DNA of 64,000 bases, from contig OZ220691.1 of NCBI GenBank assembly GCA_965116475.1, forward strand, positions 384,001 to 448,000. The letters are read 5' to 3'. Of this stretch, positions 43,729 through 57,409 are shown one piece after another (the stretch's first letter is position 1; every line of letters begins with the position of its first letter). The translations under genes and the position numbers were made by a program. The notes beneath the pieces were generated by a model. The model did no database searches. It was not told the DNA's origin and worked only from the letters and a program-made list of their open reading frames with translations. Origin of the DNA: Gemmatimonadota bacterium (lineage in GTDB: Bacteria; Gemmatimonadota; Gemmatimonadetes; Palauibacterales; Palauibacteraceae).

Positions 43729-45039
43729 TCAGCCGTCGTGTATGCCACGCGCCTCCGCGCCTTCCCAGCGGTTCCTCACATCTATCCCTCCGGTGACCGC
43801 AGCTGAGATAAGCGCCGCCCGGTACTCATCCAAACGCCGGACAACGCTCTTCGTCTTCGCGATAGCTGCGTCAAGCCTCGCGCTTTCGCGCTCCACGTGC
43901 ACAAGAATCGCATCTTGCTCGGCAAGCGGCGGTACGACAACCGGAAAATTCTGCAACATCGGAAGCCGCAGGGAGTCAACCGTCGACTTGGCAGTGCCCC
44001 GCATGGTCTCGAACCGTAGCGATGCCCCGAAGTAGTGATAGAAGAACTTCCCGACAACTTCTTCGAAGCCGCTGAACTTGTATACGCGCTGATGGAAATC
44101 AAATTTTCCGTTCACGTAGTGAAATACTTTGGCGACGCCAACGCCATCGCCCGCCGTCAGCACGGCTTCGCCATCAAACGACCAAGTGTCTATTCGTTCC
44201 ACGGTCGGCGAGCGAACAAAAAACGGGTATTCCCCTCCTTCTTGTCGATCTACTGTGTCGCGCCCACCCGTCGTGATGTTCGCCAGCGTCCTAAGTCGCT
44301 GCAGCCCCCAATGCGCCGGAATCTCACCCAGCCACTCAACGCCGGACTCCTTCATCGGTACGTTCGGGTCGAGGCCGAGGGTGACGGCACGGGTGATGAG
44401 GGCAGTGCGTTTCTCTTGCAGCAAGTCGATGAGTCGCTCCTGCCTCGCGAGCAGTTCGTCGATCTTGGCAGTTTCGCGGTCCAAGAAATCAAGGATGACT
44501 TCCTGTTCGGTTCGCGGAGGGATTGCCAACGGTAGGGCAAGCCAGCGATCCGTGGGCAAGCGTCGACTACCGTGGCCCGCCACATCCACGAGTGACAAGA
44601 GGGCCTCCTGTGTTGCCGCCAGGGCTCGGCCCAAGAACCGCTCGTTGACTCCGCGTAGCGGTCGCAACGCTTTCATGTCCTGATTGATGGTGACCCGACA
44701 TGTGGTCCAAGCGACCGGAACGGCCTTGGCCAAGATCATGCCGCGGACGACCATGAGTACCGCTCCGCTGTCCACAACTGTGAGCGATGTCTCGTGGACG
44801 GCGGCTTCCGTCACCCGGATGGCCGAGTCATCGATGGCTTCGACCTTCATGTCCTTGGGCGTAACCCAAGGGATAGAGCCATTCCAATACGCCTCAACTG
44901 CCATGCTTGGGGTCATGCCGCCGGTGACTGCCACGCATCGCTTTAGCTTCTTTACGTTCCAATGTGCCGGGATCTCCCCCAACCACTCGACGCCGGAGTC
45001 CTTGTATTCCGGATACGGCCGGGGAGTACGGTTCGCCAC
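43729..45039 (-). CDS. hsdS: Type I R-M specificity subunit
   Basis: YPEYKDSGVEWLGEIPAHW and MKESGVEWLGEIPAHW conserved regions, PPLAEQ, LISAAVTG; GTG start 1 nt after the abiEi stop. Confidence 0.92.
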   Translation of the reverse strand: MANRTPRPYPEYKDSGVEWLGEIPAHWNVKKLKRCVAVTGGMTPSMAVEAYWNGSIPWVTPKDMKVEAIDDSAIRVTEAAVHETSLTVVDSGAVLMVVRGMILAKAVPVAWTTCRVTINQDMKALRPLRGVNERFLGRALAATQEALLSLVDVAGHGSRRLPTDRWLALPLAIPPRTEQEVILDFLDRETAKIDELLARQERLIDLLQEKRTALITRAVTLGLDPNVPMKESGVEWLGEIPAHWGLQRLRTLANITTGGRDTVDRQEGGEYPFFVRSPTVERIDTWSFDGEAVLTAGDGVGVAKVFHYVNGKFDFHQRVYKFSGFEEVVGKFFYHYFGASLRFETMRGTAKSTVDSLRLPMLQNFPVVVPPLAEQDAILVHVERESARLDAAIAKTKSVVRRLDEYRAALISAAVTGGIDVRNRWEGAEARGIHDG

Positions 45040-45040
45040 G

Positions 45041-45652
45041 TCAGCGGGCGCGGTCGTAGAGCAGCGGTTCCACCAAGTAGCGCGCACGGCAGGCCTCTGC
45101 GGCGCGCCAAATCTCATCCGGCGTCGCTTTGCGTTCAAGCAGGACGTCGTCGAAGGCCTCCAGGGCGGCCTCGAGACCCACGCGGCGCCTGAAACGGAAG
45201 CAGTCCACTACCGTGCGCGCCGGCGTTGTGATCTTGGCGGGCACGCCCTCAAACTCCGTGTCCACCACGCCGTACCGGAGAGATGGGCCGGAGAATCGCG
45301 TCACATGGAGCTTGACCGAGTCCATGCTGGGCGCCCGCTCGCCGTGTGGGACGGCGATCCAGACGCCGTATCCGAGTTGCGTGCCGATGTCGTGAACCGT
45401 CAGGGCCGTGATGAGGGAGACGATCGCGTGCGGCGCCCGCGCGCAGACGGCCGCCACGCTGTGGTGTTGTGTGATGTCCGCATCCGTCCGCCAGTAGAGC
45501 CCCCACCCTTCGCGCTCAACCAGCCCCGCCGCCTCCATGCGCCGTAGATTGTCATACGACACCCCGGCCGCCTCCGCGTCCTGGGGACGGAAAAAGGCGG
45601 GGAGACCGGCATCGCGCAGGCGCTGGGCGTTGGTGGTCGTTGTGCGAAACAA
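45041..45652 (-). CDS. abiEi: Type IV TA antitoxin AbiEi family (copy 1, orphan)
   Basis: wHTH with GLVEREGWGLY, SLITAL..HDI.TQ, TTPARTVVDCFRFR; TTG start inferred from alignment with copy 2. Confidence 0.85.
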   Translation of the reverse strand: MFRTTTTNAQRLRDAGLPAFFRPQDAEAAGVSYDNLRRMEAAGLVEREGWGLYWRTDADITQHHSVAAVCARAPHAIVSLITALTVHDIGTQLGYGVWIAVPHGERAPSMDSVKLHVTRFSGPSLRYGVVDTEFEGVPAKITTPARTVVDCFRFRRRVGLEAALEAFDDVLLERKATPDEIWRAAEACRARYLVEPLLYDRAR

Positions 45653-45676
45653 ACGTTCACGCTGTTTGCATAAAAC

Positions 45677-45729
45677 GTCACATCTACAAGCAGATGTGAC
45701 ATTTTTCTGCATGAACCCGAGCCTGTCAA
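45677..45729 (-). promoter_or_regulatory. sigma70 promoter + inverted-repeat operator of abiEi copy 1
   Basis: TTGACA (45729-45724) N17 AAAAAT; IR GTCACATCT-N6-AGATGTGAC at 45677-45700. Confidence 0.65.
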
Positions 45730-45784
45730 GAGGCGCACGTAAGCCCCGTACTCTGAGTGCCGCCACCCCCAACCCTCAACCACT

Positions 45785-47896
45785 TCAGGGCCGTAGGGCC
45801 GAAAGGCAGCAGAACTTCAGCTTCTCACCTGACCCGCAGGGGCACGGGTCGTAGGGATTCCACCTGCCTACCCTCCGAAGCTCATCCAGCCGAGCGCGGC
45901 TTTTCCTCCGCCAGCCAGCCATTCGTTCGTCGCCGTTTCGAAGATCACCCCATACGGCAGGTCGCAGAATCGGACCAGAGATTCGTGGCATGAACAGCCC
46001 TGAGAGTTCATCATGAGCCTGCTGTAGCACGGCTGCTGGGATCGCTTCACGCAGTCCGGCGTTGACGGCTGCGACCGTTTGGCCGCCTTCGTTCGTAGCT
46101 AGTCGCGCCGCCAACTCGCGGCGAAAGCTGTGCCCGCCATTCGACTCCCTGAAGCGCAACACGCCGCCAAGAAGCGCTGGCTGATGTTCGATCACCGCGC
46201 CCAGATCCGAATTGAATCGCCCGGTCAAGGCGTAGCTTGCCGCCTGATCCGCCCACGCGCGACCGCTTGAAGCGGCGAAAGCCACGCTCGCCAGCGTCTC
46301 ACTGCCCAGCAGCATTCGCGTGGCGGTGGCCCCGACGTGCTGACAAATCACTCCTTGTCGTATCACTCCTGCAAGACGGATTACAGGGTAGGCCAGCCAC
46401 CGCGGAACGGCGTCCAACGGTGTTCCGCCACTCATGCCTAAGAGCCGACGAACGGATGGATTAACCAACAGACTACGCGTCATCTGTTCCAACTCATCGC
46501 TCGTCATGGCCTGCGTCAGATCTATGCTCGCCGACGCGAGCCTCTCCATCTGCCTCGCGGCTCCATCCTCCTTGCCAGGTACCGCGGTCAACTGCCGGCC
46601 GATTCTCTCCGCGATCGTTCGCTCCTTGAACGACTCTGCTGTGCTGGACTCGCCCCCCACCGCGAATGCCTTTATCTCTCCGGTCAGTGCACCGGGCTCC
46701 GGGAACATCACAAGCGGTTCGTGCGGCGGTGCAATCAGTCGTATCGCCTCCGCCTCAACGAACCTCCAAAACCAGGACGATCCGAGCAGATTGTGCAACC
46801 GTCCCAAATGATCGATGGAAAGGCACGTAACGTCGAAGCAGATGAGTCCAACGACCACATCGTGTAGGGCGGAATAGCCGTCAAGCACGACCTCGCCATC
46901 GACATACCCTTCGCCGACGAAGCACTCCTCCGTTCCCGCGCTGCTCTCGACAGTGATCACTTGCGAGGTCGTGTGTTTCCCCCACGGCAGCAAGGCTCCC
47001 ATGAAGTAGACGCTCTCCCGGCTCCGTTGCTCCTCACCGTTCCACGCAGTCGAGGTGGCCGAGCTCCGCAAGGCCTGCATGTTGGCAACGGCCTCGAGGC
47101 TCATGATTGCGCTGCGGTGGTCGGCCGGATCGACCCGATACCTGATGTGCTTCACGCCCTCCCGTGCCGGTGACGATCCTTCCGGCACCACCATGAAGTG
47201 GGGACCCGCGCCGAACAGCCGATGAGTTGATGCGCCGCGCCGCAGCGCTTCGATTACATGTTCGTCCCTAAGACCGTAGCCCAAGAATAGGACGCTGCAC
47301 TCCGCGAAGATCGAGTGGAGTGCGTCAACGAAACGCACGTCGTCCAGCACGGCGTCGTAGTCCCGCGCGGAGAACACCATCGTCTCCACGGCGCTGACCG
47401 ACCCATGCACCTTGCAGATGAAGGCCCTGCGTTCGCCCAGCAGCCGCGGCAACCGTTCGATATCGGACCTCTGGACCGTCTCCGGTCCCGGCAGGTGCCG
47501 CTCCAGCGACTCGTCTACGTTGGTCGTCAGGAGGTACGTCGGCCTGATCGTTCGAAGAGCACGCAACATTCGCTCGTAGACGGGGGTCGGTTGCCGGTAT
47601 GCGAAGGCGTCAGTGAGCAGAGAGAAATAGAGCGCCGAGTCGCTTGTCTTCATCTCCTCGAAGACCTTGGGATAGGCCCCTTCTGCCAAGAGCGAAGAAG
47701 CGGCCTCTTTGGTGTACGTGCCCACTTCCCTTGCGAATCGCCCGTGCATCTCGTCGGCTAGCTCCTCCCACAGCGGATAGCCCGCCCACTTGCTGGCCCC
47801 GGCCCCGAACCAAACCACCAACGGACGCGGGCGGCTCAGAATCAGCGATTCAAGAGCGCTTAGCGCCTGCTTCGTCTCCAGGTCGTCACTGAACAC
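45785..47896 (-). CDS. SIR2-like (SIR2_2) NADase domain protein with C-terminal SEC-C zinc motif
   Basis: WFGAGASKWAGYPLW, LLTTNVD, KVHGS, LFLGYGLRDEH; C-terminal DPCPCGSGEKLKFCC. Confidence 0.88.
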   Translation of the reverse strand: MFSDDLETKQALSALESLILSRPRPLVVWFGAGASKWAGYPLWEELADEMHGRFAREVGTYTKEAASSLLAEGAYPKVFEEMKTSDSALYFSLLTDAFAYRQPTPVYERMLRALRTIRPTYLLTTNVDESLERHLPGPETVQRSDIERLPRLLGERRAFICKVHGSVSAVETMVFSARDYDAVLDDVRFVDALHSIFAECSVLFLGYGLRDEHVIEALRRGASTHRLFGAGPHFMVVPEGSSPAREGVKHIRYRVDPADHRSAIMSLEAVANMQALRSSATSTAWNGEEQRSRESVYFMGALLPWGKHTTSQVITVESSAGTEECFVGEGYVDGEVVLDGYSALHDVVVGLICFDVTCLSIDHLGRLHNLLGSSWFWRFVEAEAIRLIAPPHEPLVMFPEPGALTGEIKAFAVGGESSTAESFKERTIAERIGRQLTAVPGKEDGAARQMERLASASIDLTQAMTSDELEQMTRSLLVNPSVRRLLGMSGGTPLDAVPRWLAYPVIRLAGVIRQGVICQHVGATATRMLLGSETLASVAFAASSGRAWADQAASYALTGRFNSDLGAVIEHQPALLGGVLRFRESNGGHSFRRELAARLATNEGGQTVAAVNAGLREAIPAAVLQQAHDELSGLFMPRISGPILRPAVWGDLRNGDERMAGWRRKSRARLDELRRVGRWNPYDPCPCGSGEKLKFCCLSALRP

Positions 47897-48003
47897 GATT
47901 GGCTCCCCTTGAAGTCAGTCTTCGGCGTCATCGTGGTTGCTGAAGGTATTGGATGGATGCACTCCCGCGGAGCGAGAACAACGCGCCTCGCACGCTCCCC
48001 GAA

Positions 48004-48255
48004 CTAGGGATCCAACGAACGACGGGGGTCCACATCCCGGGTTCCCCGGAACGTGTCGGCGCCCCGCACGACAAACAGGGTCGCACCCTTCAGCGTGAAT
48101 AGGTCGGACGCGGGCGACCGGCCCATCCGGTAAAGGAATCGCTCAGCCGCGTAGGACTGGAGGAGGAAGTTCAGTTGCGTCCCCTGGTCGCGCGCCACGT
48201 TCAGCGGGCGGGCATGGACTGACGCAAGGACGTTCGTGATCGGCCTGCGCCGCAT
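48004..48255 (-). pseudogene. abiEii: Truncated AbiEii nucleotidyltransferase toxin (83 aa)
   Basis: ASVHAR..N.A, ERFLYR, FTLKGA, R.TRDVD, then a stop; start overlaps the abiEi copy 2 stop. Confidence 0.82.
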
Positions 48256-48863
48256 CAGTACGCCCGCATCCTCAGGGCCGGCCCCAGAAGTGAACGGGCG
48301 CCGCACACGTCTGCGGCCCGCCAGATCTGATCGGGCGTTGCCTTGCCGTCGTCGAGCACCTCCTGCAGCGCTTCGAGAGCAGGTTCGAGTCCGATCTTGC
48401 TTCGGAACCGAAAGCAGTCCACCACGGTTCGCGCTGGCGTGGTGATCTTCGTGGGCACACCGTCGAATTCCGTGTCCACGACGCCATACGTGAGGGACGC
48501 CGCGCTGAAGCGCGTGATGCGAACCGGTAGCCTCTCAAGGGCCGGGGGCCGGGACTTGTGGGGGATCGCGATCCAGACCTGGTGCGGCTTCTGCGTGCCG
48601 ATGTCGTAGACTTCCAGCGCTGTGAGCAGGCAAACGACGGCCTGCCGCGCCCGCGCGCACACGGCCGCAATCGTGTGATGGCTCGTGACGTCGGCACGCG
48701 TTTGCCGGTAGAGGCCCCAACCTTCACGCTCGACTAGACCGAGGCCCTCCAGGCGCCGAAGCTCGTGGTAGCCGATTCCGGCCGCCTCCGCATCGCAAGG
48801 ACGGAAGAACGTACCGAGACCTGTCTCGGAGAGCCGCTCGTCGTTGAGGGATTCCTGAATCAT
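48255..48863 (-). CDS. abiEi: Type IV TA antitoxin AbiEi family (copy 2)
   Basis: Same motifs as copy 1 (LVEREGWGLY, KITTPARTVVDCFRFR). Confidence 0.88.
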   Translation of the reverse strand: MIQESLNDERLSETGLGTFFRPCDAEAAGIGYHELRRLEGLGLVEREGWGLYRQTRADVTSHHTIAAVCARARQAVVCLLTALEVYDIGTQKPHQVWIAIPHKSRPPALERLPVRITRFSAASLTYGVVDTEFDGVPTKITTPARTVVDCFRFRSKIGLEPALEALQEVLDDGKATPDQIWRAADVCGARSLLGPALRMRAY

Positions 48864-48889
48864 CGCGTACCCAAGCTTGTTCTATAAAC

Positions 48890-48944
48890 GTCGGCAATTG
48901 CAATTCAATGCCGACAATTTCTTGGCACACGAGCTTTGAGTCAA
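48890..48944 (-). promoter_or_regulatory. sigma70 promoter + inverted-repeat operator of abiEi copy 2
   Basis: TTGACT (48944-48939) N17 GAAATT; IR GTCGGCA-N12-TGCCGAC at 48890-48915. Confidence 0.6.
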
Positions 48945-48963
48945 GCGAGCGCAAGCCACGTTC

Positions 48964-48996
48964 GTCAACAGATCTGTTGCCAACAATTCTGTTGAC
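48964..48996. repeat. Nested palindrome array (CAACA/TGTTG)
   Basis: GTCAACAGA...TCTGTTGAC outer IR; perfect CAACAGATCTGTTG at 48966-48979. Confidence 0.7.
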
Positions 48997-49007
48997 AACG
49001 GTGCGGA

Positions 49008-51173
49008 TCAGGACTCCGATCCGTAGGGAATCCGCGCCACTTCCCGGAGCATATCCACGATCTCGGCCCCGATGGCCCCGATGTCGGCTTCGATCTCCTC
49101 AAGCGGGCGGGGCGGCTTGAAGCGGTAGAAGTAGCGGTTGAAGTTGATCTCGTATCCCACGAGACCGACGTCGCCGTCGCGTCGGTCGCGCTTCGTCGTA
49201 TCGATCCAGGCGTCGTCCGCGTGCGGCTGGACCTCGCGCGCGAAGAACTCTCGCACGCTTTCCGGGACGCCGTCGTCGTCCACAGGGTCGTCACCGTCGG
49301 GCAACGGCACGCGCTCTGTGTCCCGCAGTTCCGGATCGGGCTCGGGATGGCCGTGGGCGTCGCGGCAGATCTCCGCCGTCTCGTCCCGTTCCGAGAGCGC
49401 CTTGAGGATCGCCTTCCGTACCGGAACGCGCAGGTTGATCTCCGCCTCCTCCATGGCTGCATCCAGTACGACGGCGAACGCGTCGCGATCCTTGGGGAGA
49501 TCGTCCGGCATCGCCTCAAGCGCCGTCTTGATCGCTGCCTGTAGCGCCCGGCCTTCCTCCTGCTCGCGCTCCCCGGCCTCACCCCGTTTCCGCGACTTGG
49601 CCAGGTTCGCGAACGCCGTCTGCTCCTCCAGACGTGCCATGCGCTCCTCGCTCGCCTGGAAGTTGAGTCGCAGTGGACGTTCCACCGTGATCTTCCGGAA
49701 CCCGAACCGGGTCGTGGGGAATACGCGGCTGACCGGCACGTCCTCCTCACCGTCGGCGCCGACCACGGGCCGGGTCTCGCCATCCCGGAAGCCGCGGACG
49801 AGCGCCAGAATGTCCGCCGCCTTCTCCGCTGGAATGTCGCGCCGCTTGTCCCCGAGGCTCTTCTTGCGCGGCGTCCAGAAGGAGGTGGCGTCGATGAGTT
49901 GGACCTTGCCCGCCCGCCCCGGCGCCTTGCGGTTCGTGAGGAGCCAGATGTAGGTGCCGATGCCGGTGTTGTAGAAGAGCTGTTCCGGGAGCGCGATCAG
50001 CGCCTCAAGCAGGTCGTTCTCCAGGATGTGGCGGCGAATCTCGCTCTCGCCGCTCCCCGCGTCGCCGGTGAAGAGCGGCGATCCGTTCATGATGATCGCG
50101 ATGCGCGTGCCACCCTCCTCCGGCGTCCTCGCGCGCGCGAGCATATGAAGAAGGAAGAGCGTCTGCCCGTCGCTGATCCTCGGGAGGCCGGGACCGAAGC
50201 GGCCGGCCGCCCCGCGCTCGTGCTCGGCCTTGACCGCGTCCTTGTCCCGTTTCCAGTCCTTCCCGTACGGCGGGTTGGCGATCAGGTAGTCGAAGTGTTT
50301 GTCCGCGTGCCGGTCGTTGGAGAGGACGCTCCCGAACGCGATGTTCCTTGCGTCATGTCCCTTCGGATCCTTCATGAAGAAGTCCGACTTCGACACGGCC
50401 CACGTCTCGGGGTTCACCTCCTGCCCGAACAGGTGGACCTCCGCGTCGCGGTTGATCGCGGGCCGCAGGAGTTCGCCGTCCTCTTCCCTTCCCTCGAGGA
50501 TGCGCTGCTTGGCGATCATCAGCATGCCGCCGGAGCCGCAGCAAGGGTCGTACACGCTGCGCACGGTCCCCACCCGCGAGAGTTCCTCCTCGTCGCCGGC
50601 CAGCATCAACTCGACCATGAGGTGCACCACGTCCCGCGGTGTGAAGTGCTCGCCGGGGTTCTCGTCGAGGGCCTCGTTGAACTTCCGGATCAGCTCCTCG
50701 AAGATCGTCCCCATGGTGGGGTTGTCGACGACGTCGGGATGGAGGTCGAGCGTCCCGAACCGCTCCACGACCTGGTACAGCAACTGCGACTCGTCGAGCT
50801 TGCTGATCGTGTTGTCGAAGTCGAACCGCTCGATGACCTCCCGCATCTCGTCGCTGAACCCGACGATGTAGTTGCGCAGGTTCGCGGCCAGCGCGGGCGC
50901 GTCGCCGAGAAGGCGCTCGAAGTCGTACCGGGACGTGTTGTAGAACGCGAACCCCGACGCCTTCTTTAGCTGCGCGTCCATGTCCTCAAGACCCATCCCG
51001 CGCAACTCCGCCTTCCGCGCCAGCACCTTCTCCTTCGTCGGCGCCAGCACGCAGTCGAGCCGTCGCAGGACGGTCAGCGGCAGCATCACATCCTGGTACT
51101 TCCCCCGCTTGAAGGTGTCCCGAATCAGGTTCGCGACATCCCAAATGAAGCTGACGATCTCCGTGTGGGTCAT
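49008..51173 (-). CDS. hsdM: Type I R-M methyltransferase subunit (N6-adenine)
   Basis: FIWDVANLIRD, GEHFTPRDVV, YDPCCGSGGML, ANPPYG, GYEINFNRYFY. Confidence 0.95.
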   Translation of the reverse strand: MTHTEIVSFIWDVANLIRDTFKRGKYQDVMLPLTVLRRLDCVLAPTKEKVLARKAELRGMGLEDMDAQLKKASGFAFYNTSRYDFERLLGDAPALAANLRNYIVGFSDEMREVIERFDFDNTISKLDESQLLYQVVERFGTLDLHPDVVDNPTMGTIFEELIRKFNEALDENPGEHFTPRDVVHLMVELMLAGDEEELSRVGTVRSVYDPCCGSGGMLMIAKQRILEGREEDGELLRPAINRDAEVHLFGQEVNPETWAVSKSDFFMKDPKGHDARNIAFGSVLSNDRHADKHFDYLIANPPYGKDWKRDKDAVKAEHERGAAGRFGPGLPRISDGQTLFLLHMLARARTPEEGGTRIAIIMNGSPLFTGDAGSGESEIRRHILENDLLEALIALPEQLFYNTGIGTYIWLLTNRKAPGRAGKVQLIDATSFWTPRKKSLGDKRRDIPAEKAADILALVRGFRDGETRPVVGADGEEDVPVSRVFPTTRFGFRKITVERPLRLNFQASEERMARLEEQTAFANLAKSRKRGEAGEREQEEGRALQAAIKTALEAMPDDLPKDRDAFAVVLDAAMEEAEINLRVPVRKAILKALSERDETAEICRDAHGHPEPDPELRDTERVPLPDGDDPVDDDGVPESVREFFAREVQPHADDAWIDTTKRDRRDGDVGLVGYEINFNRYFYRFKPPRPLEEIEADIGAIGAEIVDMLREVARIPYGSES

Positions 51174-51311
51174 AGGCTCGAATCCGGGGACGTTGGTCCG
51201 GTGCCCCCCGCGGCGATCGCGCGTCAAACACTCGTTCCGTTGAAGGTGGCCCGCCCGTTTCGTATCACTTATCGACATTTGTGTAATGCAAATCTTGTAG
51301 CACCAAAACGG

Positions 51312-52432
51312 CTACCACACAACCGTGTCGCGCTCGACGATGTCGAGAAGGGGCTCGAACGCATACAGGGCTGGCCGGCGTCCGCTTGCCTTCTCCACCA
51401 CGTCGATGACGTCGCCCTCGCTTAGCAACTTGAGCGCTCGATGGGCAGTAGCGTTCGTTACGCCCGTGTCCTCAATGAACTCGGTCGTCGTGAAGATGGG
51501 CTCGCTGAAGATCGCATCCAGGAAACGAACGGTGTACGGCGATCTCGTGAGCCCTTCCACATGGGCCTTCATGTCGTCGTATAGGCCCAGGATCTCGCGG
51601 ACCCGTTTGTATTGTCCTCGGCCTGCGCCTGGAGCGCTCGTAGGAAAAAGCAGGACCACTCCGTCCAATCGTCGTCGCGAGACACCGCTCTGAGCCGCTC
51701 GTAATACTCTGCGCGATGGGAATCCAAGTAGTAGCTGATGTAGAAGACGGGCCTGCGGATGAGGTCATGCTGCCACATGAAGAGCGGTACAAACAGTCTT
51801 CCGAGGCGCCCGTTCCCATCCTGGAACGGATGGAGAGCTTCGAACTCCGCGTGGAGGATCGCGAGCTGCACCAATTGATCGAGGGGCGAGGGATCGTGCA
51901 TGTACTTTTCCCACGCCGACATGGCATCCGGCAGCAGATTCGCCGGAGGCGGGACAAACCACGCCTCGTCGATCGTACACCCCGGCGGGCCAATCCAGTT
52001 TGGTCCCGCCCGGAACTCGCCGGGGTTCCGGTTACGGCCGCGTACGCCCGCCAGGAGTCTCTCGTGAGCCTGCCGAAGCACGCGCAAGCAAAGAGGCAGG
52101 TCGTTCAGCAACCGACTCGCGTCGTACATCGCGGTCCGGTAGTTGAGCACCTCCTCGAAATCGTACTGCCGATGCTCCGACCCCTCGCGCCTTCCCGCCC
52201 TGAACTGAAGAACCTCCTCCATCGTCGTTCGGGTGCCTTCGATCCTGTTGGAAAACACCGCTTCCTGTGTCGCCATGGGAGCGAGGAGAACATCCGGATC
52301 CAAGATCGCTGCAAGCATACCGTCGTATCTCGCAACCGCTGCAGAAGCCGGACCCAGGAGAGGGATAATCCGAGACCAGTCAAGAAGGCCGTCCGGAGGG
52401 AACTTCCCGATGTGGTATTGTACCGGACTCAA
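51312..52432 (-). pseudogene. Fic family protein with a single frameshift (or sequencing error)
   Basis: AGGAGG RBS + TTG start; SNRIEGT, HPFQDGNGRLGR; frame switches near 51607 into a C-terminal wHTH (GRRPALYAF). Confidence 0.8.
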
Positions 52433-52572
52433 CCGGGACCTCCTACGTCTTTCTCGAGACACCCGCCGTCGCCGTCGCCCACGGCCTCTCCGGACAGATC
52501 CAAGGTAACGATATCGCGGCCGCTTCGGGAAAGCTCGCGGCCGATGTGGCCGAGGCCCGACCGACATGGAAG

Positions 52573-52601
52573 TTGCCCCTCGACGCATCCTCCGACATCT
52601 T
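52573..52601 (+). promoter_or_regulatory. Putative sigma70 promoter for a near-leaderless leader transcript
   Basis: TTGCCC-N17-CATCTT ending 8 nt before ATG 52610. Confidence 0.4.
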
Positions 52602-52609
52602 CTCGCGCC

Positions 52610-52738
52610 ATGATTTGCGCGCCTGACATCCGACCTCTCCGCGCCCGCGGAGCGAGCTGCGCCTGCGGCACCCCTGCCTGCGGCACCTGCGCCTGTATGT
52701 GTTCGTGTCCCCACGACGCGTGGATCCGGGTGTGTTGA
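52610..52738 (+). CDS. Cys-rich leader peptide (42 aa, 9 Cys)
   Basis: MICAPDIRPLRARGASCACGTPACGTCACMCSCPHDAWIRVC*; followed by a terminator. Confidence 0.65.
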   Translation: MICAPDIRPLRARGASCACGTPACGTCACMCSCPHDAWIRVC

Positions 52739-52770
52739 TGCGCTGAGCTCCAAGCTCAAACCGTTTTTCG

Positions 52771-52805
52771 AGCCGCCCCGGTCTGCCGACCCGGGCGGCT
52801 TTTTT
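52771..52805 (+). terminator. Intrinsic terminator (attenuator) in the 5' region of the ATP-grasp gene
   Basis: AGCCGCCC-C-GGTC-tgcc-GACC-C-GGGCGGCT followed by a T run; ends 38 nt before the downstream ATG. Confidence 0.85.
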
Positions 52806-52843
52806 CGTGCCCCGTCCAACCGGACTCAACCCGAGAGAAACCG

Positions 52844-53881
52844 ATGACTCGTCCCGTTTTACCGCAGATACATGTCCTGTACGAAAACCCGGCCTGGATT
52901 CCGCCCCTTGAGGAGGCGCTCGCGAGGGAGGGCTTCCGGGTCCGCCTCGTGCACGTGAACGAGGGGCTCGTCGATCCGTCGGCCCCTCCGCCCGAGGGCG
53001 TCTGGATCAACCGCATCAGCCCGTCGTCGCACACGCGCGGCCACGTCCACACGGTGGAACTGGCCCGGCAGTTCCTGTACTGGCTGGAGTCGCACGGCCG
53101 CCGGGTGATCAACGGGCTCGGCGCCTTCGAGCTTGAGATGAGCAAGCTCCGGCAGGATCTCGTCCTGCGGCGGCACGGGATCCGCACGCCGCGCACCGTG
53201 CTGGCCGTGGGGAGAAGGCACCTGCTCCGAGCGGCCGCCACTTTCGATGGCCCGTTCATCACGAAGCACGACCAGGGCGGCAAGGGCCTCGGGATCCGCC
53301 TCTTCCACGACGCGCGGGAACTCGAGCGGCACCTCGACGGCGACGGCTTCGACGCGGGACCCGGCGCCCGCATGATCCTCCAGCAGTACATCGACGCGCC
53401 GGAGCCGTTCATCACGCGGGTGGAGATCGTCGGCGGCCGCTTCCTGTTCGCCATGCGGAGTTCCACGGCGGACGGATTCGAACTCTGCCCCTCGGATGCG
53501 TGCAACCCGATGCCCTCCGAGGGCAACGCACCCTCCGGGAGAGACGCGCCCTCCGGGACGGACGAGGAGGCGGCGCTCGAGGAAGCGACGCTCGAGGTGT
53601 GCCCGGCCGGCCCCGGCCTCTTCAGCCCCTCGCCGGTCAGGGAGGACGACCCGCTCGTGCAACGGTACATTCGGCTCTGCAACGAGGAGCGGATCGAGAT
53701 CGCCGGCATAGAATTCGTGCGGGACGCGTGGGGCCACCGCTACACGTACGACATCAACGGCACGACGAACTACAACCAGACGCTCGGCGCCCGGATCGGC
53801 GTCGACGGCATGGGCGAGGTGGCGCGCTACGTACGCCGGACGGCGACCCCGGCCCGACGGCGCCAGCGCATCGCGAGTTGA
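52844..53881 (+). CDS. ATP-grasp ligase (RimK/glutathione synthetase-like)
   Basis: NRISPSSHTRGH, ITKHDQGGKGLGI, ILQQYI, FELCPSDAC, AGIEF, YDINGTTNYN. Confidence 0.85.
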   Translation: MTRPVLPQIHVLYENPAWIPPLEEALAREGFRVRLVHVNEGLVDPSAPPPEGVWINRISPSSHTRGHVHTVELARQFLYWLESHGRRVINGLGAFELEMSKLRQDLVLRRHGIRTPRTVLAVGRRHLLRAAATFDGPFITKHDQGGKGLGIRLFHDARELERHLDGDGFDAGPGARMILQQYIDAPEPFITRVEIVGGRFLFAMRSSTADGFELCPSDACNPMPSEGNAPSGRDAPSGTDEEAALEEATLEVCPAGPGLFSPSPVREDDPLVQRYIRLCNEERIEIAGIEFVRDAWGHRYTYDINGTTNYNQTLGARIGVDGMGEVARYVRRTATPARRRQRIAS

Positions 53882-53895
53882 GCGGTGTCCACCGG

Positions 53896-54291
53896 TCAGA
53901 CGCCGGGCATCGCCCTGATGTCGGGACACTCCAGCAGCGACGCGTCCGCCGTGACGAGCGTGAGATCGTGTACCATGGCGGTCGCCGCGATGAAGCGATC
54001 GGCCGGGTCACCATGGTCGAGGCGGATGCTGCGGCTGCCGAACGCGACCTCGAACGTCAATGGGACTTCGTGCACCGGCCGCACGGTCAGCGCTGTCCGG
54101 ATCCAACTCCAGGGATCGGGATTGAGGAGCACGCGCCCCTTCTCGGCGAGCACCAATACCTCCCAGACGCTGACGGGCGACAGCGCGAGGGTATTCTCCG
54201 GCGCGGCCAGCGCCGAGCGGGCCCGGCCGGAGATCCGGTCGGGCTCCAGCAGGCTCCAGAGCCAGACGTGCGTATCGAGGAGCAGCTTCAC
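53896..54291 (-). CDS. vapC: VapC PIN-domain toxin (copy 1)
   Basis: LLLDTHVWLW, SVWE, HGDPADRFIAATA, LVTAD. Confidence 0.92.
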   Translation of the reverse strand: MKLLLDTHVWLWSLLEPDRISGRARSALAAPENTLALSPVSVWEVLVLAEKGRVLLNPDPWSWIRTALTVRPVHEVPLTFEVAFGSRSIRLDHGDPADRFIAATAMVHDLTLVTADASLLECPDIRAMPGV

Positions 54292-54656
54292 CGGGTCCGG
54301 TCGTCGCCCGGATCGGCGGTCTCCGAACGCAATGCCGCCCACTCGGAGGGGTCCGCCGCCGGCGAGACGATGTCGCCGACGATCTCACCGGTGTCGCTCA
54401 TCGCCCCCATCCAGCCGCTGCCGCCGATCTGGACCTCGGCCGCATCGGTTGCGGTGCCGGAGACGTTCGGGGTCGCCGTGTAGCCGGCGGCCAGCCGGGC
54501 CCGCTCGCGCACGACGCCGAACATGGGCTGCGGGAGCGCATGGCGGCTCAGCAAGTAGCGCAATTCGCCTTCCAGGGAACGATGATTCGCCTTCGCCCGT
54601 CTCTTGAGCGCGGCGATCAGGTCGTCGTCCACGTTCCGAATCGTGAGCACTCCCAA
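54288..54656 (-). CDS. FitA-like RHH antitoxin (copy 1)
   Basis: LTIRNVDDD....LKRRAKANHRSLEGELR; GTGA overlap with vapC. Confidence 0.85.
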   Translation of the reverse strand: MGVLTIRNVDDDLIAALKRRAKANHRSLEGELRYLLSRHALPQPMFGVVRERARLAAGYTATPNVSGTATDAAEVQIGGSGWMGAMSDTGEIVGDIVSPAADPSEWAALRSETADPGDDRTR

Positions 54657-54819: not shown

Positions 54820-56430
54820 GTGGAGGAAACGAACCGGATGAACGGCGGGCGGCGCCGGCGGGCCACGGCGCAGGGCGGGCTGTGGAAGGGGCTGAATCCC
54901 GGGATGGCGCTGGCCGCCAAGGGGGTCGTGCTCGTCTTCGTCCTCGCCACGGTCTGGGACGTGGAGGCCGCCGGCGCCGTGTTCGGCCGCGTCCGCGCCT
55001 GGATCGAGGGCACGCTCGACTGGTTCTACGTGCTGACCGTCTGCGCCACCCTGTTCACCTGCCTGTTCCTGGTCTGCAGCCGGTTCGGCCGCATCCGGCT
55101 CGGCGACGAGGACTCCTCGCCCGAGTTCAGCCGCTTCTCCTGGCTCGCCATGCTGTTCTCGGCCGCCGTCGGGATCGGATTGCTCTTCTTCTCCATCGCC
55201 GAGCCGATCTTCTACTTCGACAACAGCCAGGCCGCGGGTTACCCCAACAACCCGATCGCCGACCTCGCGGGCGCCGCGACGCTGGACGAACGGCGGGCCA
55301 CCCACGCCCTGCGCGCCACCTACTTCCACTGGGGCCTGCACGGTTGGTCCGCGTACGTCCTGGTCGGGCTTTGCCTGGCCTACTTCGGGTTCCGCAAGAA
55401 GCTGCCGCTGACGCTGCGCTCCGCGCTGTACCCCCTCATCGGCGATCGGATCTACGGCCCGCTCGGGGACCTGGTGGACCTGCTGGCGGTGTTCGGCGGG
55501 GTGTTCGGCATCGCGACCTCCCTCGGCCTCGGGGCGAGCCAGATGGCCGCCGGCCTCAACGTGCTGTTCGGCGTCGATCCGGGTCTCCTCACGCAGGTTG
55601 CGCTCATCGCCGTCATCTCGGTGGCGGCCACGTTGTCGGTGGTATCCGGCGTGAAGCGCGGGATCCGCCGCCTGTCCGAGTGGAACATCGGCGTGAGCGT
55701 GGTCCTGCTGGGGTGCTTCCTGTTCCTGGGTCCCATCCCGTGGCTCGTCAGTTTTGTGGCCACATCCGCCGCCGAGTACCTGTGGCGCGTGCTACCCATG
55801 GGGTTCTGGATCGCCGACGATCCGGGGGAGGCCGCCTGGCAGAACGCCTGGACGATCTTCTACTGGGGCTGGTGGATTTCCTGGGCTCCCTTCGTCGGCA
55901 CGTTCATCGCCCGCATCTCGCGCGGGCGCACGCTGCGGGAGTTCATCCTCGGCGTGCTCATCGTTCCGACCGGCCTGGCGCTGGTGTGGTTCGGCATCTT
56001 CGGCGGCAACGCCATCCACCTGGAACTCACCGCCCCGGGCGGGGTCGGGACGGCGGGAATCATGGACCTGGTGCGGAGCGGGAACTACGAGGCCGCGCTC
56101 TACGCGACGATCGACCGGATGAGCGACACCGACTGGCTCGCGTGGGCCATGTCCGCCATGGCCACCCTCCTCGTGGCGACGTGGTTCGTCACATCTTCGG
56201 ACTCGGGCACCCTGGTCATCACCACCTTCCTGAGCATGGGCGAACCTCACCCGCCGCGGCGTTTCCGCATCGTGTGGGGTCTTGGCGTGGGAGCGGTGGC
56301 CGCCGTGCTGCTGCTCGCCGACGGCCTCCAGGCCCTGCAGACCGCGGCCATAGCCGCCGCCCTGCCTGTGAGCGTCGTGCTGCTGTTCATGATCGCCGGG
56401 CTGCTCCGATCCCTGGCCCGCGACCCGTAG
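54820..56430 (+). CDS. BCCT family (betaine/carnitine/choline) transporter
   Basis: FSWLAMLFSAAVGIGL, FHWGLHGW, WTIFYWGWWISWAPFVGTFIARISRGRT, TSSDSG. Confidence 0.95.
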   Translation: MEETNRMNGGRRRRATAQGGLWKGLNPGMALAAKGVVLVFVLATVWDVEAAGAVFGRVRAWIEGTLDWFYVLTVCATLFTCLFLVCSRFGRIRLGDEDSSPEFSRFSWLAMLFSAAVGIGLLFFSIAEPIFYFDNSQAAGYPNNPIADLAGAATLDERRATHALRATYFHWGLHGWSAYVLVGLCLAYFGFRKKLPLTLRSALYPLIGDRIYGPLGDLVDLLAVFGGVFGIATSLGLGASQMAAGLNVLFGVDPGLLTQVALIAVISVAATLSVVSGVKRGIRRLSEWNIGVSVVLLGCFLFLGPIPWLVSFVATSAAEYLWRVLPMGFWIADDPGEAAWQNAWTIFYWGWWISWAPFVGTFIARISRGRTLREFILGVLIVPTGLALVWFGIFGGNAIHLELTAPGGVGTAGIMDLVRSGNYEAALYATIDRMSDTDWLAWAMSAMATLLVATWFVTSSDSGTLVITTFLSMGEPHPPRRFRIVWGLGVGAVAAVLLLADGLQALQTAAIAAALPVSVVLLFMIAGLLRSLARDP

Positions 56431-56450: not shown

Positions 56451-56846
56451 TCAGGCACCGGGCAGTGCCTTGATGTCGGGGCACTCGAGCAGCGACGCGT
56501 CCGCCGTGACCAGGGTGAGATCGTGCACCATGGCGGTGGCCGCGATGAAACGATCGGCCGGATCACCGTGTCCGAGGCGGATGCTGCGGCTGCCGAACGC
56601 GACCTCGAACGTCAGCGGGATTTCGTGCATCGGCCGAACGGTCAGGGCCGTACGGGTCCAGGTCCAGGGATCGGGCTGGAGGATTACACGTCCCTTCTCG
56701 GCGAGCACCAGGGCCTCCCAGACGCTCACGGGCGACAACCCCAGGGTGTTCGCCGAGGCAGTCAGTTCGCGGCGGGCCCGGCGGGAGAGACGATCCGGAT
56801 CCAGCAGGCTCCAGAGCCAGATGTGGGTATCGAGGAGCAGCTTCAC
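56451..56846 (-). CDS. vapC: VapC PIN-domain toxin (copy 2)
   Basis: Close paralog of copy 1, same length. Confidence 0.92.
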   Translation of the reverse strand: MKLLLDTHIWLWSLLDPDRLSRRARRELTASANTLGLSPVSVWEALVLAEKGRVILQPDPWTWTRTALTVRPMHEIPLTFEVAFGSRSIRLGHGDPADRFIAATAMVHDLTLVTADASLLECPDIKALPGA

Positions 56847-57211
56847 CGCGTGCGACCGTCGCTCGGATCGACGGCCTCCGGGCGAAGTGCCGTCCACTCG
56901 GAGGGATCGACCGCCGGAGAGACGATGTCGCCGACGATCTCACCCACGTCGCTCATGGCTCCCAGCCACGTTCCGCCGCCGGTCCGGGGATCCGCCGCCT
57001 GGGGGGCGGTGTTCGGGTCGTTCGGCGTCACCTCGTAACCAGCGGCCATCCGGGCACGCTCGCGCACGACGCCGAGCGTGGGCTTCGGGACCGCGTGGCA
57101 GGCAAGCAGGTGGCGCAGTTCGCCCTCCAGAGAACGATGGTTGGCCTTCGCCCGCCTCTTGAGCGCGGCGATCACGTCGTCGTCCACGTTCCGAATCGTG
57201 AGTACCCCCAC
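56843..57211 (-). CDS. FitA-like RHH antitoxin (copy 2)
   Basis: Close paralog of copy 1, same 369-nt length. Confidence 0.85.
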   Translation of the reverse strand: MGVLTIRNVDDDVIAALKRRAKANHRSLEGELRHLLACHAVPKPTLGVVRERARMAAGYEVTPNDPNTAPQAADPRTGGGTWLGAMSDVGEIVGDIVSPAVDPSEWTALRPEAVDPSDGRTR

Positions 57212-57409
57212 CTGTGCACCTCCGGCGTCAACTTCTCCATGAAGGCGTAATGTATGGAAATCGGCTTCATTATGACAGCGCACGCCTCATCGCCAGAGAC
57301 GGGACTCTGCAACCTCCCCCGCTCCTCCTGTCCTCACGCCATCCCCCGACGTACGATCCGTTCGATAGGCTCGCAGATGCTCCCCCGCCTCGTCGCCGAA
57401 GGTGATCCG

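Follow-up and report, generated by a model that had tools for sequence, protein, structure and literature searches.

Ribosome-mediated attenuation is a textbook mechanism of gene regulation. In the literature that we found, cysteine attenuation has been tested only as translational control in mycobacteria, while a terminator-type Cys attenuator has only been predicted. In mycobacteria, leaderless polycysteine sORFs were shown experimentally to act as a cysteine gauge at the translational level (Canestrari et al., bioRxiv 10.1101/834739); the attenuation passage of this preprint presents attenuation by Cys uORFs as previously undescribed, and a passage in PMC13236596 still cites the mycobacterial control as translational. 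A Cys uORF followed by an intrinsic terminator (i.e., uORFC-8-2) was predicted before cysS in Rhodobacterales, according to sections of Brewer et al. 2021 (PMC8632094). Excerpts of two other reports describe a transcribed leader with two Cys codons before cysS in Deinococcus deserti (PMC4007540) and predicted Cys leaders with no conserved terminators in Actinobacteria (PMC1262725). Excerpts of PMC2965389 treat swaps between sensing systems in general; these excerpts and those of PMC11109978 and PMC6429828 hold no relevant passage on cysteine. Full-text searches, mainly of openly accessible main texts, returned nothing on Cys attenuation in Gemmatimonadota or on the ligase family described below.

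Here, we analyzed a 64,000-nucleotide stretch of a Gemmatimonadota genome (contig OZ220691.1, positions 384,001 to 448,000; hereafter, the window), in which a Cys-rich leader precedes the gene of an uncharacterized ATP-grasp ligase (Table 1). The element is most probably a transcription attenuator in which ribosomes gauge the supply of charged tRNA-Cys, and the gene is most likely switched on under cysteine shortage.

Table 1. Positions (window numbering) of the features of the leader and the ligase gene
Feature	Positions	Strand	Remarks
Putative -35 box TTGCCC	52573..52578	+	GTTGC at 52572-52576 invariant in 20/20 genus loci; conservation of the element starts here
Putative -10 box CATCTT	52596..52601	+	All 6 columns unchanged across the 20 genus loci
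Predicted protector fold of the untranslated leader	52602..52745	+	5' part with 52722-52745; local hairpin 52697-52721
Leader (sensor) ORF	52610..52738	+	42 aa, 9 Cys; from the sequence and the ORF list
Cys control codons 17-33	52658..52708	+	7 Cys, the final three TGT
Predicted antiterminator	52722..52784	+	52722-52732 with terminator 5' arm 52774-52784; encloses inner stems, including hairpin 52744-52758
Intrinsic terminator (GC stem and T6)	52770..52805	+	Stem 52770-52801 (-25.8 kcal/mol), T6 at 52800-52805; paired in 94% of cells across 40 sequences, with little covariation
SD-like GAGAG of the ligase gene	52833..52837	+	Downstream of the terminator, outside its hairpin
Uncharacterized ATP-grasp ligase, 345 aa (RimK/LysX fold)	52844..53881	+	Pfam RimK, E = 2.8e-6

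The leader ORF runs from an ATG at 52610 to a TGA at 52736 to 52738, with Cys at codons 3, 17, 19, 24, 27, 29, 31, 33, and 42. The original prediction had described this 42-codon, 9-Cys ORF with seven Cys in codons 17 to 33, the GC hairpin with a T run between it and the ligase gene, and the TTGCCC-N17-CATCTT box 8 nt before the ATG (52573 to 52601), all of which proved correct. It had also remarked that the ORF is not listed separately, which is explained by its position at the end of a longer, 340-aa frame (51716 to 52738) antisense to the Fic gene. Since the upstream DNA differs among relatives, this longer frame is not conserved. Cys makes up 0.8% of codons in the long high-GC3 ORFs of the source genome, and 89 of the 137 leader Cys codons in the 20 genus loci are TGT, vs. 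15% genome-wide. The leader region is more stable than all 200 shuffles (fold z = -3.8). Among 135 Cys-rich short ORFs genome-wide, four passed a loose terminator filter, and only the leader in the window lies near a strong hairpin (-24.3, vs. -12 to -17 for the other passers). No Cys-leader regulon was found in the source genome with these crude filters, and no Cys leader was seen at its four Cys/Met PLP genes or its cysK/CBS-like gene. In an Rfam scan, the element matched no family at the gathering score (best score, 20 bits; cutoff, 50). The source genome encodes tRNA-Sec (G000:C1:3530731-3530826), and the leader TGA stands in a Cys-TGA-Cys context; selenocysteine read-through was nevertheless rejected, since the downstream spacing shifts the frame and several relatives stop at another codon.

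The putative promoter boxes, separated by 17 nt and followed after 8 nt by the ATG, were missed by a consensus sigma-70 promoter scan, which found 0 promoters. Over the 20 genus loci, the spacer is 74% conserved and the DNA just upstream 57%. The sigma-70 spacing places the predicted TSS at ~52607 to 52610, which would make the leader (nearly) leaderless, with no SD. Two metatranscriptome contigs (X1 and X2) span the leader and ligase of related strains and reach 111 to 255 nt upstream; they run beyond the predicted TSS, also span the opposite-strand neighbor, and are uninformative on RNA ends.

Within the genus, the ligase is present in 19 of 35 congeners, and the full leader element co-occurs with it exactly (the same 20 of 61 genomes hold both; other matches to the element in the 61 genomes are 27 to 52 nt long with E > 1e-4). 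All 20 loci, the window's own included, retain the promoter boxes, the ATG, 5 to 9 Cys codons, the stop, and the terminator, and the neighboring genes and the DNA 5' of the -35 box vary among them. A search of orthologs for a conserved Cys ORF and terminator, proposed as a check in the original prediction, thus came out in its favor: the Cys uORF is kept in 20/20 genus and 62/78 GTDB loci, and the terminator in 20/20 genus loci. The genus set omits one weak match (L024) and second pieces of genes counted already (L025 to L030). Among the further loci of the congener ligase survey, one carries an unrelated Cys leader (L021) and two have no leader (L022 and L023). The leaders, whose frame has survived several indels, fall into five length classes (99 to 129 nt), all multiples of 3, while the stop-to-terminator spacing (30 to 35 nt) changes in 1-nt steps. 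Codons 2 to 16 exhibit 19 amino-acid vs. 8 synonymous variants, with more change at the first and second positions than at the third. Since lengths change by threes and nonsynonymous variants outnumber synonymous ones, we conclude that the leader frame and its Cys codons are under selection and the peptide sequence is not.

These patterns bear on the possibility that the ORF encodes a real small protein (i.e., a metallothionein-like chelator or a graspetide RiPP precursor), with the terminator merely setting a high peptide-to-enzyme ratio. Such a role would suit a Cys-rich peptide that adjoins an ATP-grasp enzyme, is well conserved within the genus, and is followed by a ligase whose fold matches include the graspetide ligase PsnB. 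However, the excess of nonsynonymous variants does not fit, and across clades the leaders are unrelated apart from Cys. Graspetide systems comprise an MvdC/D-type ligase and a precursor with a conserved leader and a Ser/Thr/Lys-Asp/Glu core; here, the ligase had no NCBIfam match of the MvdC/D type at E <= 0.1, and the peptide lacks an acidic core motif and a linked transporter or protease. A family match and selection on the peptide sequence, as expected of a bacterial metallothionein, are likewise missing, the peptide having no match in Pfam (E <= 0.01) or NCBIfam. Many ligases also occur without the peptide or with a riboswitch in its place. We therefore regard a small-protein function as quite improbable.

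Under attenuation, transcription would start just 5' of the leader ATG. With plentiful cysteine, the ribosome would reach the stop at 52736 and cover 52722 to 52750, whereupon the terminator would form and the RNA would end before the ligase gene. With scarce cysteine, the ribosome would stall at Cys codons 17 to 33, its footprint ending just short of 52722, and the freed segment 52722 to 52732 could capture the 5' arm of the terminator while the 3' arm is still to be transcribed, letting RNA polymerase read into the ligase gene.

Folding with ribosome-protected segments, another check named in the original prediction, gave a geometry that fits such a switch. If the ribosome covers ~12 nt beyond its A site and transcription has reached the terminator loop, the antiterminator is predicted for stalls with the A site at codons 19 to 33 (-27.1 kcal/mol and P = 0.83 in the codon-33 case), is reduced to P = 0.51 at codon 35, and is ~0 from codon 37 to the stop, where the terminator alone is predicted. 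In the untranslated leader, the predicted protector fold (MFE from the TSS to 52750, -62.3 kcal/mol) would be beaten by the antiterminator once the RNA reaches 52787. The segment GATCCGGGTGTGTT (52723 to 52736) does pair imperfectly with the terminator 5' arm, as originally claimed; the predicted antiterminator (52722 to 52784) is longer than the 14-nt duplex then named, and the short duplex alone is no stronger in the window copy than in shuffles (p ~0.47), reaching p <= 0.05 in 7/64 loci.

Comparative data fit the antiterminator. Over 40 sequences, 86% of its cells are paired (sliding controls, 20 to 49%), five pairs are changed on both sides, and the covariation was equaled in 1 of 500 shuffles, a test inflated by the relatedness of the sequences. 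Two unrelated leader types (A and B) fit their own terminator arms better than foreign ones (AxA, -17.7 vs. AxB, -13.4; BxB, -17.3 vs. BxA, -15.8), the own arm beating the foreign mean in 17/24. A hairpin of <= -12 followed by at least four T occurs in 44/64 leaders. Among the 26 leaders for which a terminator was located, 9 were clean switches, against 10 of 64 unrelated source-genome terminators, a comparison in which the terminator finder chose some wrong hairpins; 7 of the 26 leaders remained sequestered with the ribosome at the stop. The window copy scored 0.79 vs. 0.22, and 4/64 background terminators reached at least 0.8. The predicted switch-folding energies are thus only modestly above background. 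At equilibrium, the terminator always beats the antiterminator, and untranslated RNA folded to 52787 also yields the antiterminator (P = 0.73); the switch would therefore need kinetics. Given these folding limits, the case for an attenuator leans more on comparative evidence than on folding. A G..YG pattern near the leader stop (35 and 38 of 40 sequences), in a stretch conserved anyway, presumably resembles the pause consensus, and we gave it no weight as evidence.

The equilibrium folds, together with antiterminator energies near background, would also suit another arrangement: a terminator of fixed leakiness, or one that ends a separate sRNA, before a ligase gene transcribed from a promoter of its own, with the Cys ORF playing no part. 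However, the T run and the ligase ATG leave little room for such a promoter (~38 nt in the window copy; 23 to 91 nt in the genus), the interval is poorly conserved, and the specificity for Cys recurs across phyla, which makes this arrangement very improbable. As for the level at which an attenuator would act, the ligase SD lies 3' of the terminator and is unpaired with the Cys tract in the MFE structure; since it is outside the terminator hairpin, transcriptional control appears likelier than SD occlusion. A 13-nt direct repeat, ACCGGACTCAACC, occurs at the start of the Fic gene (52421 to 52433) and before the ligase SD (52819 to 52831) and may be due to chance.

Beyond the genus, a Cys uORF (10 to 50 codons, at least three Cys in 12, ending 40 to 200 nt 5' of the gene) precedes the ligase homolog at the 62 GTDB loci mentioned above, of which 51 have at least four Cys, and is absent from 16 of the 78. 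Control amino acids gave far lower counts (Y, 0; H, 3; F, 1; W, 0; D, 9; E, 3; N, 1; Q, 2; K, 1); the 78 loci, which share members with the genus set, are not independent. Among 26 GTDB loci labeled Myxococcota, Deltaproteobacteria, Bradymonadales, or unclassified proteobacteria, 13 carry a Cys uORF, in some cases with as many as 8 Cys in a row, and many of the Myxococcota-labeled leaders have no U-tract terminator. A 44-member family profile matched 73 of 251 own-phylum genomes (a tally including the unpublished genome G210, which entered no other analysis) and 59 of 251 genomes in the phylum of locus L092, where the Cys uORF occurs at 9 of the 30 best loci (0 to 3 for control amino acids) and is absent from 21.

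In several Longimicrobiales (L054, L057, L060, L063, L064, L067, L071, L075, L080, and L088), the leader begins at the end of the upstream gene, without a promoter box; this gene encodes a TM2 domain by Pfam at L054, L057, and L060, and at L059 and L073 the same gene end is found with the leader and terminator lost. At L105 (~1640 to 1740), a Cys-rich frame, a stop, and a terminator like the window's have no in-frame ATG, GTG, or TTG, reflecting an unusual start or an assembly error.

A second, distant ligase subfamily in the same phylum, set off by a long branch in a quick tree, was sampled at 29 loci (9 from the profile search and 20 picked for long contigs). Unrelated Cys or Cys/Met uORFs occur at 16 of these, 8 directly upstream of the ligase (two further script matches were judged spurious) and 8, including L156, before a preceding FMN-reductase-like gene (assigned by Pfam for three reductases and by likeness for the rest). 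Another three loci have uORFs with two Cys, and five have nothing. At L147, L149, and L157, the same position is occupied by a SAM-II riboswitch scoring above the Rfam cutoff; L144 scored 34.5 bits (cutoff, 36), and L143 has the same motif by eye only. All five are Gemmatimonadota loci in which SAM-II (RF00521, named for alphaproteobacteria) is followed by a terminator-like hairpin. The replacement of the Cys leader by SAM riboswitches in relatives supports the attenuator proposed in the original prediction. Leaders rich in both Met and Cys (L134, L136, L137, L139, L140, L151, L155, L160, and L161) suggest joint sensing of both sulfur amino acids.

Sulfur-related genes also accompany the ligase in relatives. 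An LLM monooxygenase adjoins it in 10 of 24 distant-subfamily loci scanned, with SfnG as the best match, below the cutoff, in 4/4 tested. In Bacillus sp. N5-665 (L112), a SAM-I riboswitch is followed by an SfnG-like monooxygenase and then the ligase, and in Spirosoma, a family member precedes permeases and an SsuD-like gene. Fusions, which may reflect mis-joined genes, link single family proteins to a glutaredoxin, a thioredoxin, a DAACS symporter, or part of a CysJ-like flavoprotein. In Pediococcus, the copy comes after a T-box-like element (69.7 bits; cutoff, 93) with a specifier region and a UGGU bulge that, by our reading, do not point to Cys, and a Bacillus mycoides plasmid copy showed no sulfur context.

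The distribution of leaders also helps assess whether the leader is instead a nascent-peptide sensor, in which CxC/CxxC thiols would sense metal, redox state, or a general slowdown of translation and act through the same terminator. The Cys residues lie 9 to 25 codons from the stop, where a nascent chain is still within the exit tunnel, which speaks against sensing by their thiols. The CxC/CxxC spacing of the Gemmatimonadota leaders and the fusion of individual family members to Grx or Trx would fit such a sensor; however, across leaders the Cys spacing is free (CxC, CC, and up to 8 consecutive Cys), no arrest motif is conserved, and the SAM riboswitches swapped in by relatives sense sulfur amino-acid status. 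A precedent exists in the copper-responsive CruR of Bordetella, which according to passages of PMC9426467 uses Rho, whereas the window element has an intrinsic terminator. On balance, we consider a nascent-peptide sensor improbable and retain attenuation by charged tRNA-Cys.

Homologs are labeled "alpha-L-glutamate ligase" in databases, and those closest to the window ligase come from "Ca. Palauibacter" and other Gemmatimonadota. The protein itself falls below every NCBIfam cutoff (RimK family alpha-L-glutamate ligase TIGR00768, 52.6 vs. 143.4 bits). Its AlphaFold2 (AF2) model (pLDDT, 87) shares the fold of the amide ligases ArgX, LysX, and RimK in Foldseek matches (TMq, 0.62 to 0.67); unlike them, it has only 13 to 18% identity to these enzymes, scores below the family cutoffs, and carries a family-specific ELCPxDxC-like motif with invariant P216 and C220. 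Right after this motif lies a low-confidence, indel-prone insert (residues ~220 to 254; 53500 to 53620). A PDB sequence search gave one weak match, and the ESM Atlas gave only unnamed RimK-like clusters. The family comprises 1,368 representatives (50% clustering, E <= 0.001), 188 of them at <= 1e-30; no characterization was found in a literature search on the family with sulfur terms. LdmS, an ATP-grasp ligase whose upstream regulatory elements connect it with sulfur amino acids (as described in part of PMC9486568), is not among the listed top fold matches or the PDB sequence match of the window ligase.

No conserved operon partners were found in the close clade; one convergent Cys/Met PLP gene occurs among the 96 neighbor ORFs of 35 loci, and no sulfur genes neighbor the ligase there; the sulfur context comes from more distant relatives. 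Since the source genome (96% complete) has no match to PF00296, the ligase here would work without an LLM monooxygenase. This genome carries GCS2, PAPS-reductase-family, cysK/CBS-like, and the four Cys/Met PLP genes. Most likely, the ligase serves a salvage response to sulfur starvation. Its expected induction on sulfur amino-acid shortage and the SsuE/SfnG-like linkage suggest salvage rather than cysteine-consuming thiol synthesis. Our best guess for its reaction, a tentative one, is ADP-forming amide ligation with a sulfur amino acid or an organosulfur compound as the substrate. More broadly, and with slightly less than even confidence, we propose that Cys attenuators with intrinsic terminators are recurrent sulfur sensors, which occur in Gemmatimonadota and Myxococcota in two or more unrelated sequence types and are swappable with SAM-I/SAM-II. 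By this reading, they mark this ATP-grasp family as central to an undescribed salvage pathway for organosulfur/cysteine; the family may use its invariant Cys motif in catalysis, and the pathway would feed an SfnG-like monooxygenase in some lineages.

In the window, a Fic/SoFic-like gene (51312 to 52433, -) diverges from the leader promoter and appears frameshifted; its Fic frame (Pfam Fic_N and Fic) ends at 51569, with a probable C-terminal part in another frame (51312 to 51668). Type I restriction-modification genes lie within 43729 to 51278 (-), including HsdM (49008 to 51278, by Pfam) and an HsdS-like ORF (43729 to 45138, by eye), along with what we take to be a SIR2-like 703-aa ORF (45785 to 47896) and two similar AbiEi-like ORFs (45041 to 45772 and 48255 to 48863). 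We read this region as a putative defense island adjoining the leader/ligase cassette. On the other side, two similar RHH antitoxin/PIN toxin pairs (53896 to 54656, -, and 56451 to 57283, -, the second assigned by sequence likeness only) flank a BCCT transporter gene (54820 to 56430).

The element gives a first entry point to the function of a widespread ligase family labeled only by distant likeness, points to amino-acid sensing by RNA in an uncultured phylum of sponge symbionts, and is compact, portable, and amenable to reporters in Escherichia coli. Compared with the mycobacterial polycysteine sORFs, cited as a precedent in the original prediction, it has a similar Cys-rich and probably leaderless uORF; that precedent holds as a cysteine gauge but is translational, since Ms5788A, as described in part of bioRxiv 10.1101/834739, works through SD occlusion rather than termination, whereas the window element has a terminator. 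Mycobacteria have several Cys uORF loci per genome, according to the same source, and one was found here. The original prediction knew of no described example in this lineage and gene context, which stands in the literature searched; the combination itself (i.e., a Cys-codon uORF and an intrinsic terminator, with the same proposed logic) was already predicted for uORFC-8-2 before Rhodobacterales cysS (passages of PMC8632094). By that description, uORFC-8-2 differs in having two tandem Cys at codons 14 and 15, in preceding a cysteinyl-tRNA synthetase gene, and in its phylum. The hallmarks of the classical attenuators (i.e., E. coli trpL, Salmonella hisL, and the thr, leu, ilv, and pheA attenuators, as treated in parts of bioRxiv 10.1101/834739 and PMC4007540), namely, a conserved one-amino-acid uORF and an intrinsic terminator between it and the gene, are both present, and the predicted antiterminator strand likewise lies just past the footprint of the stalled ribosome, with geometry and covariation that fit and energies only modestly above background. 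Unlike these attenuators, the window element would read Cys in a nearly leaderless uORF of 42 codons, precedes a single enzyme gene and not a biosynthetic operon, and occurs in Gemmatimonadota. It is most probably a Cys-sensing, terminator-type variant of the classical attenuators in a new lineage and gene context.
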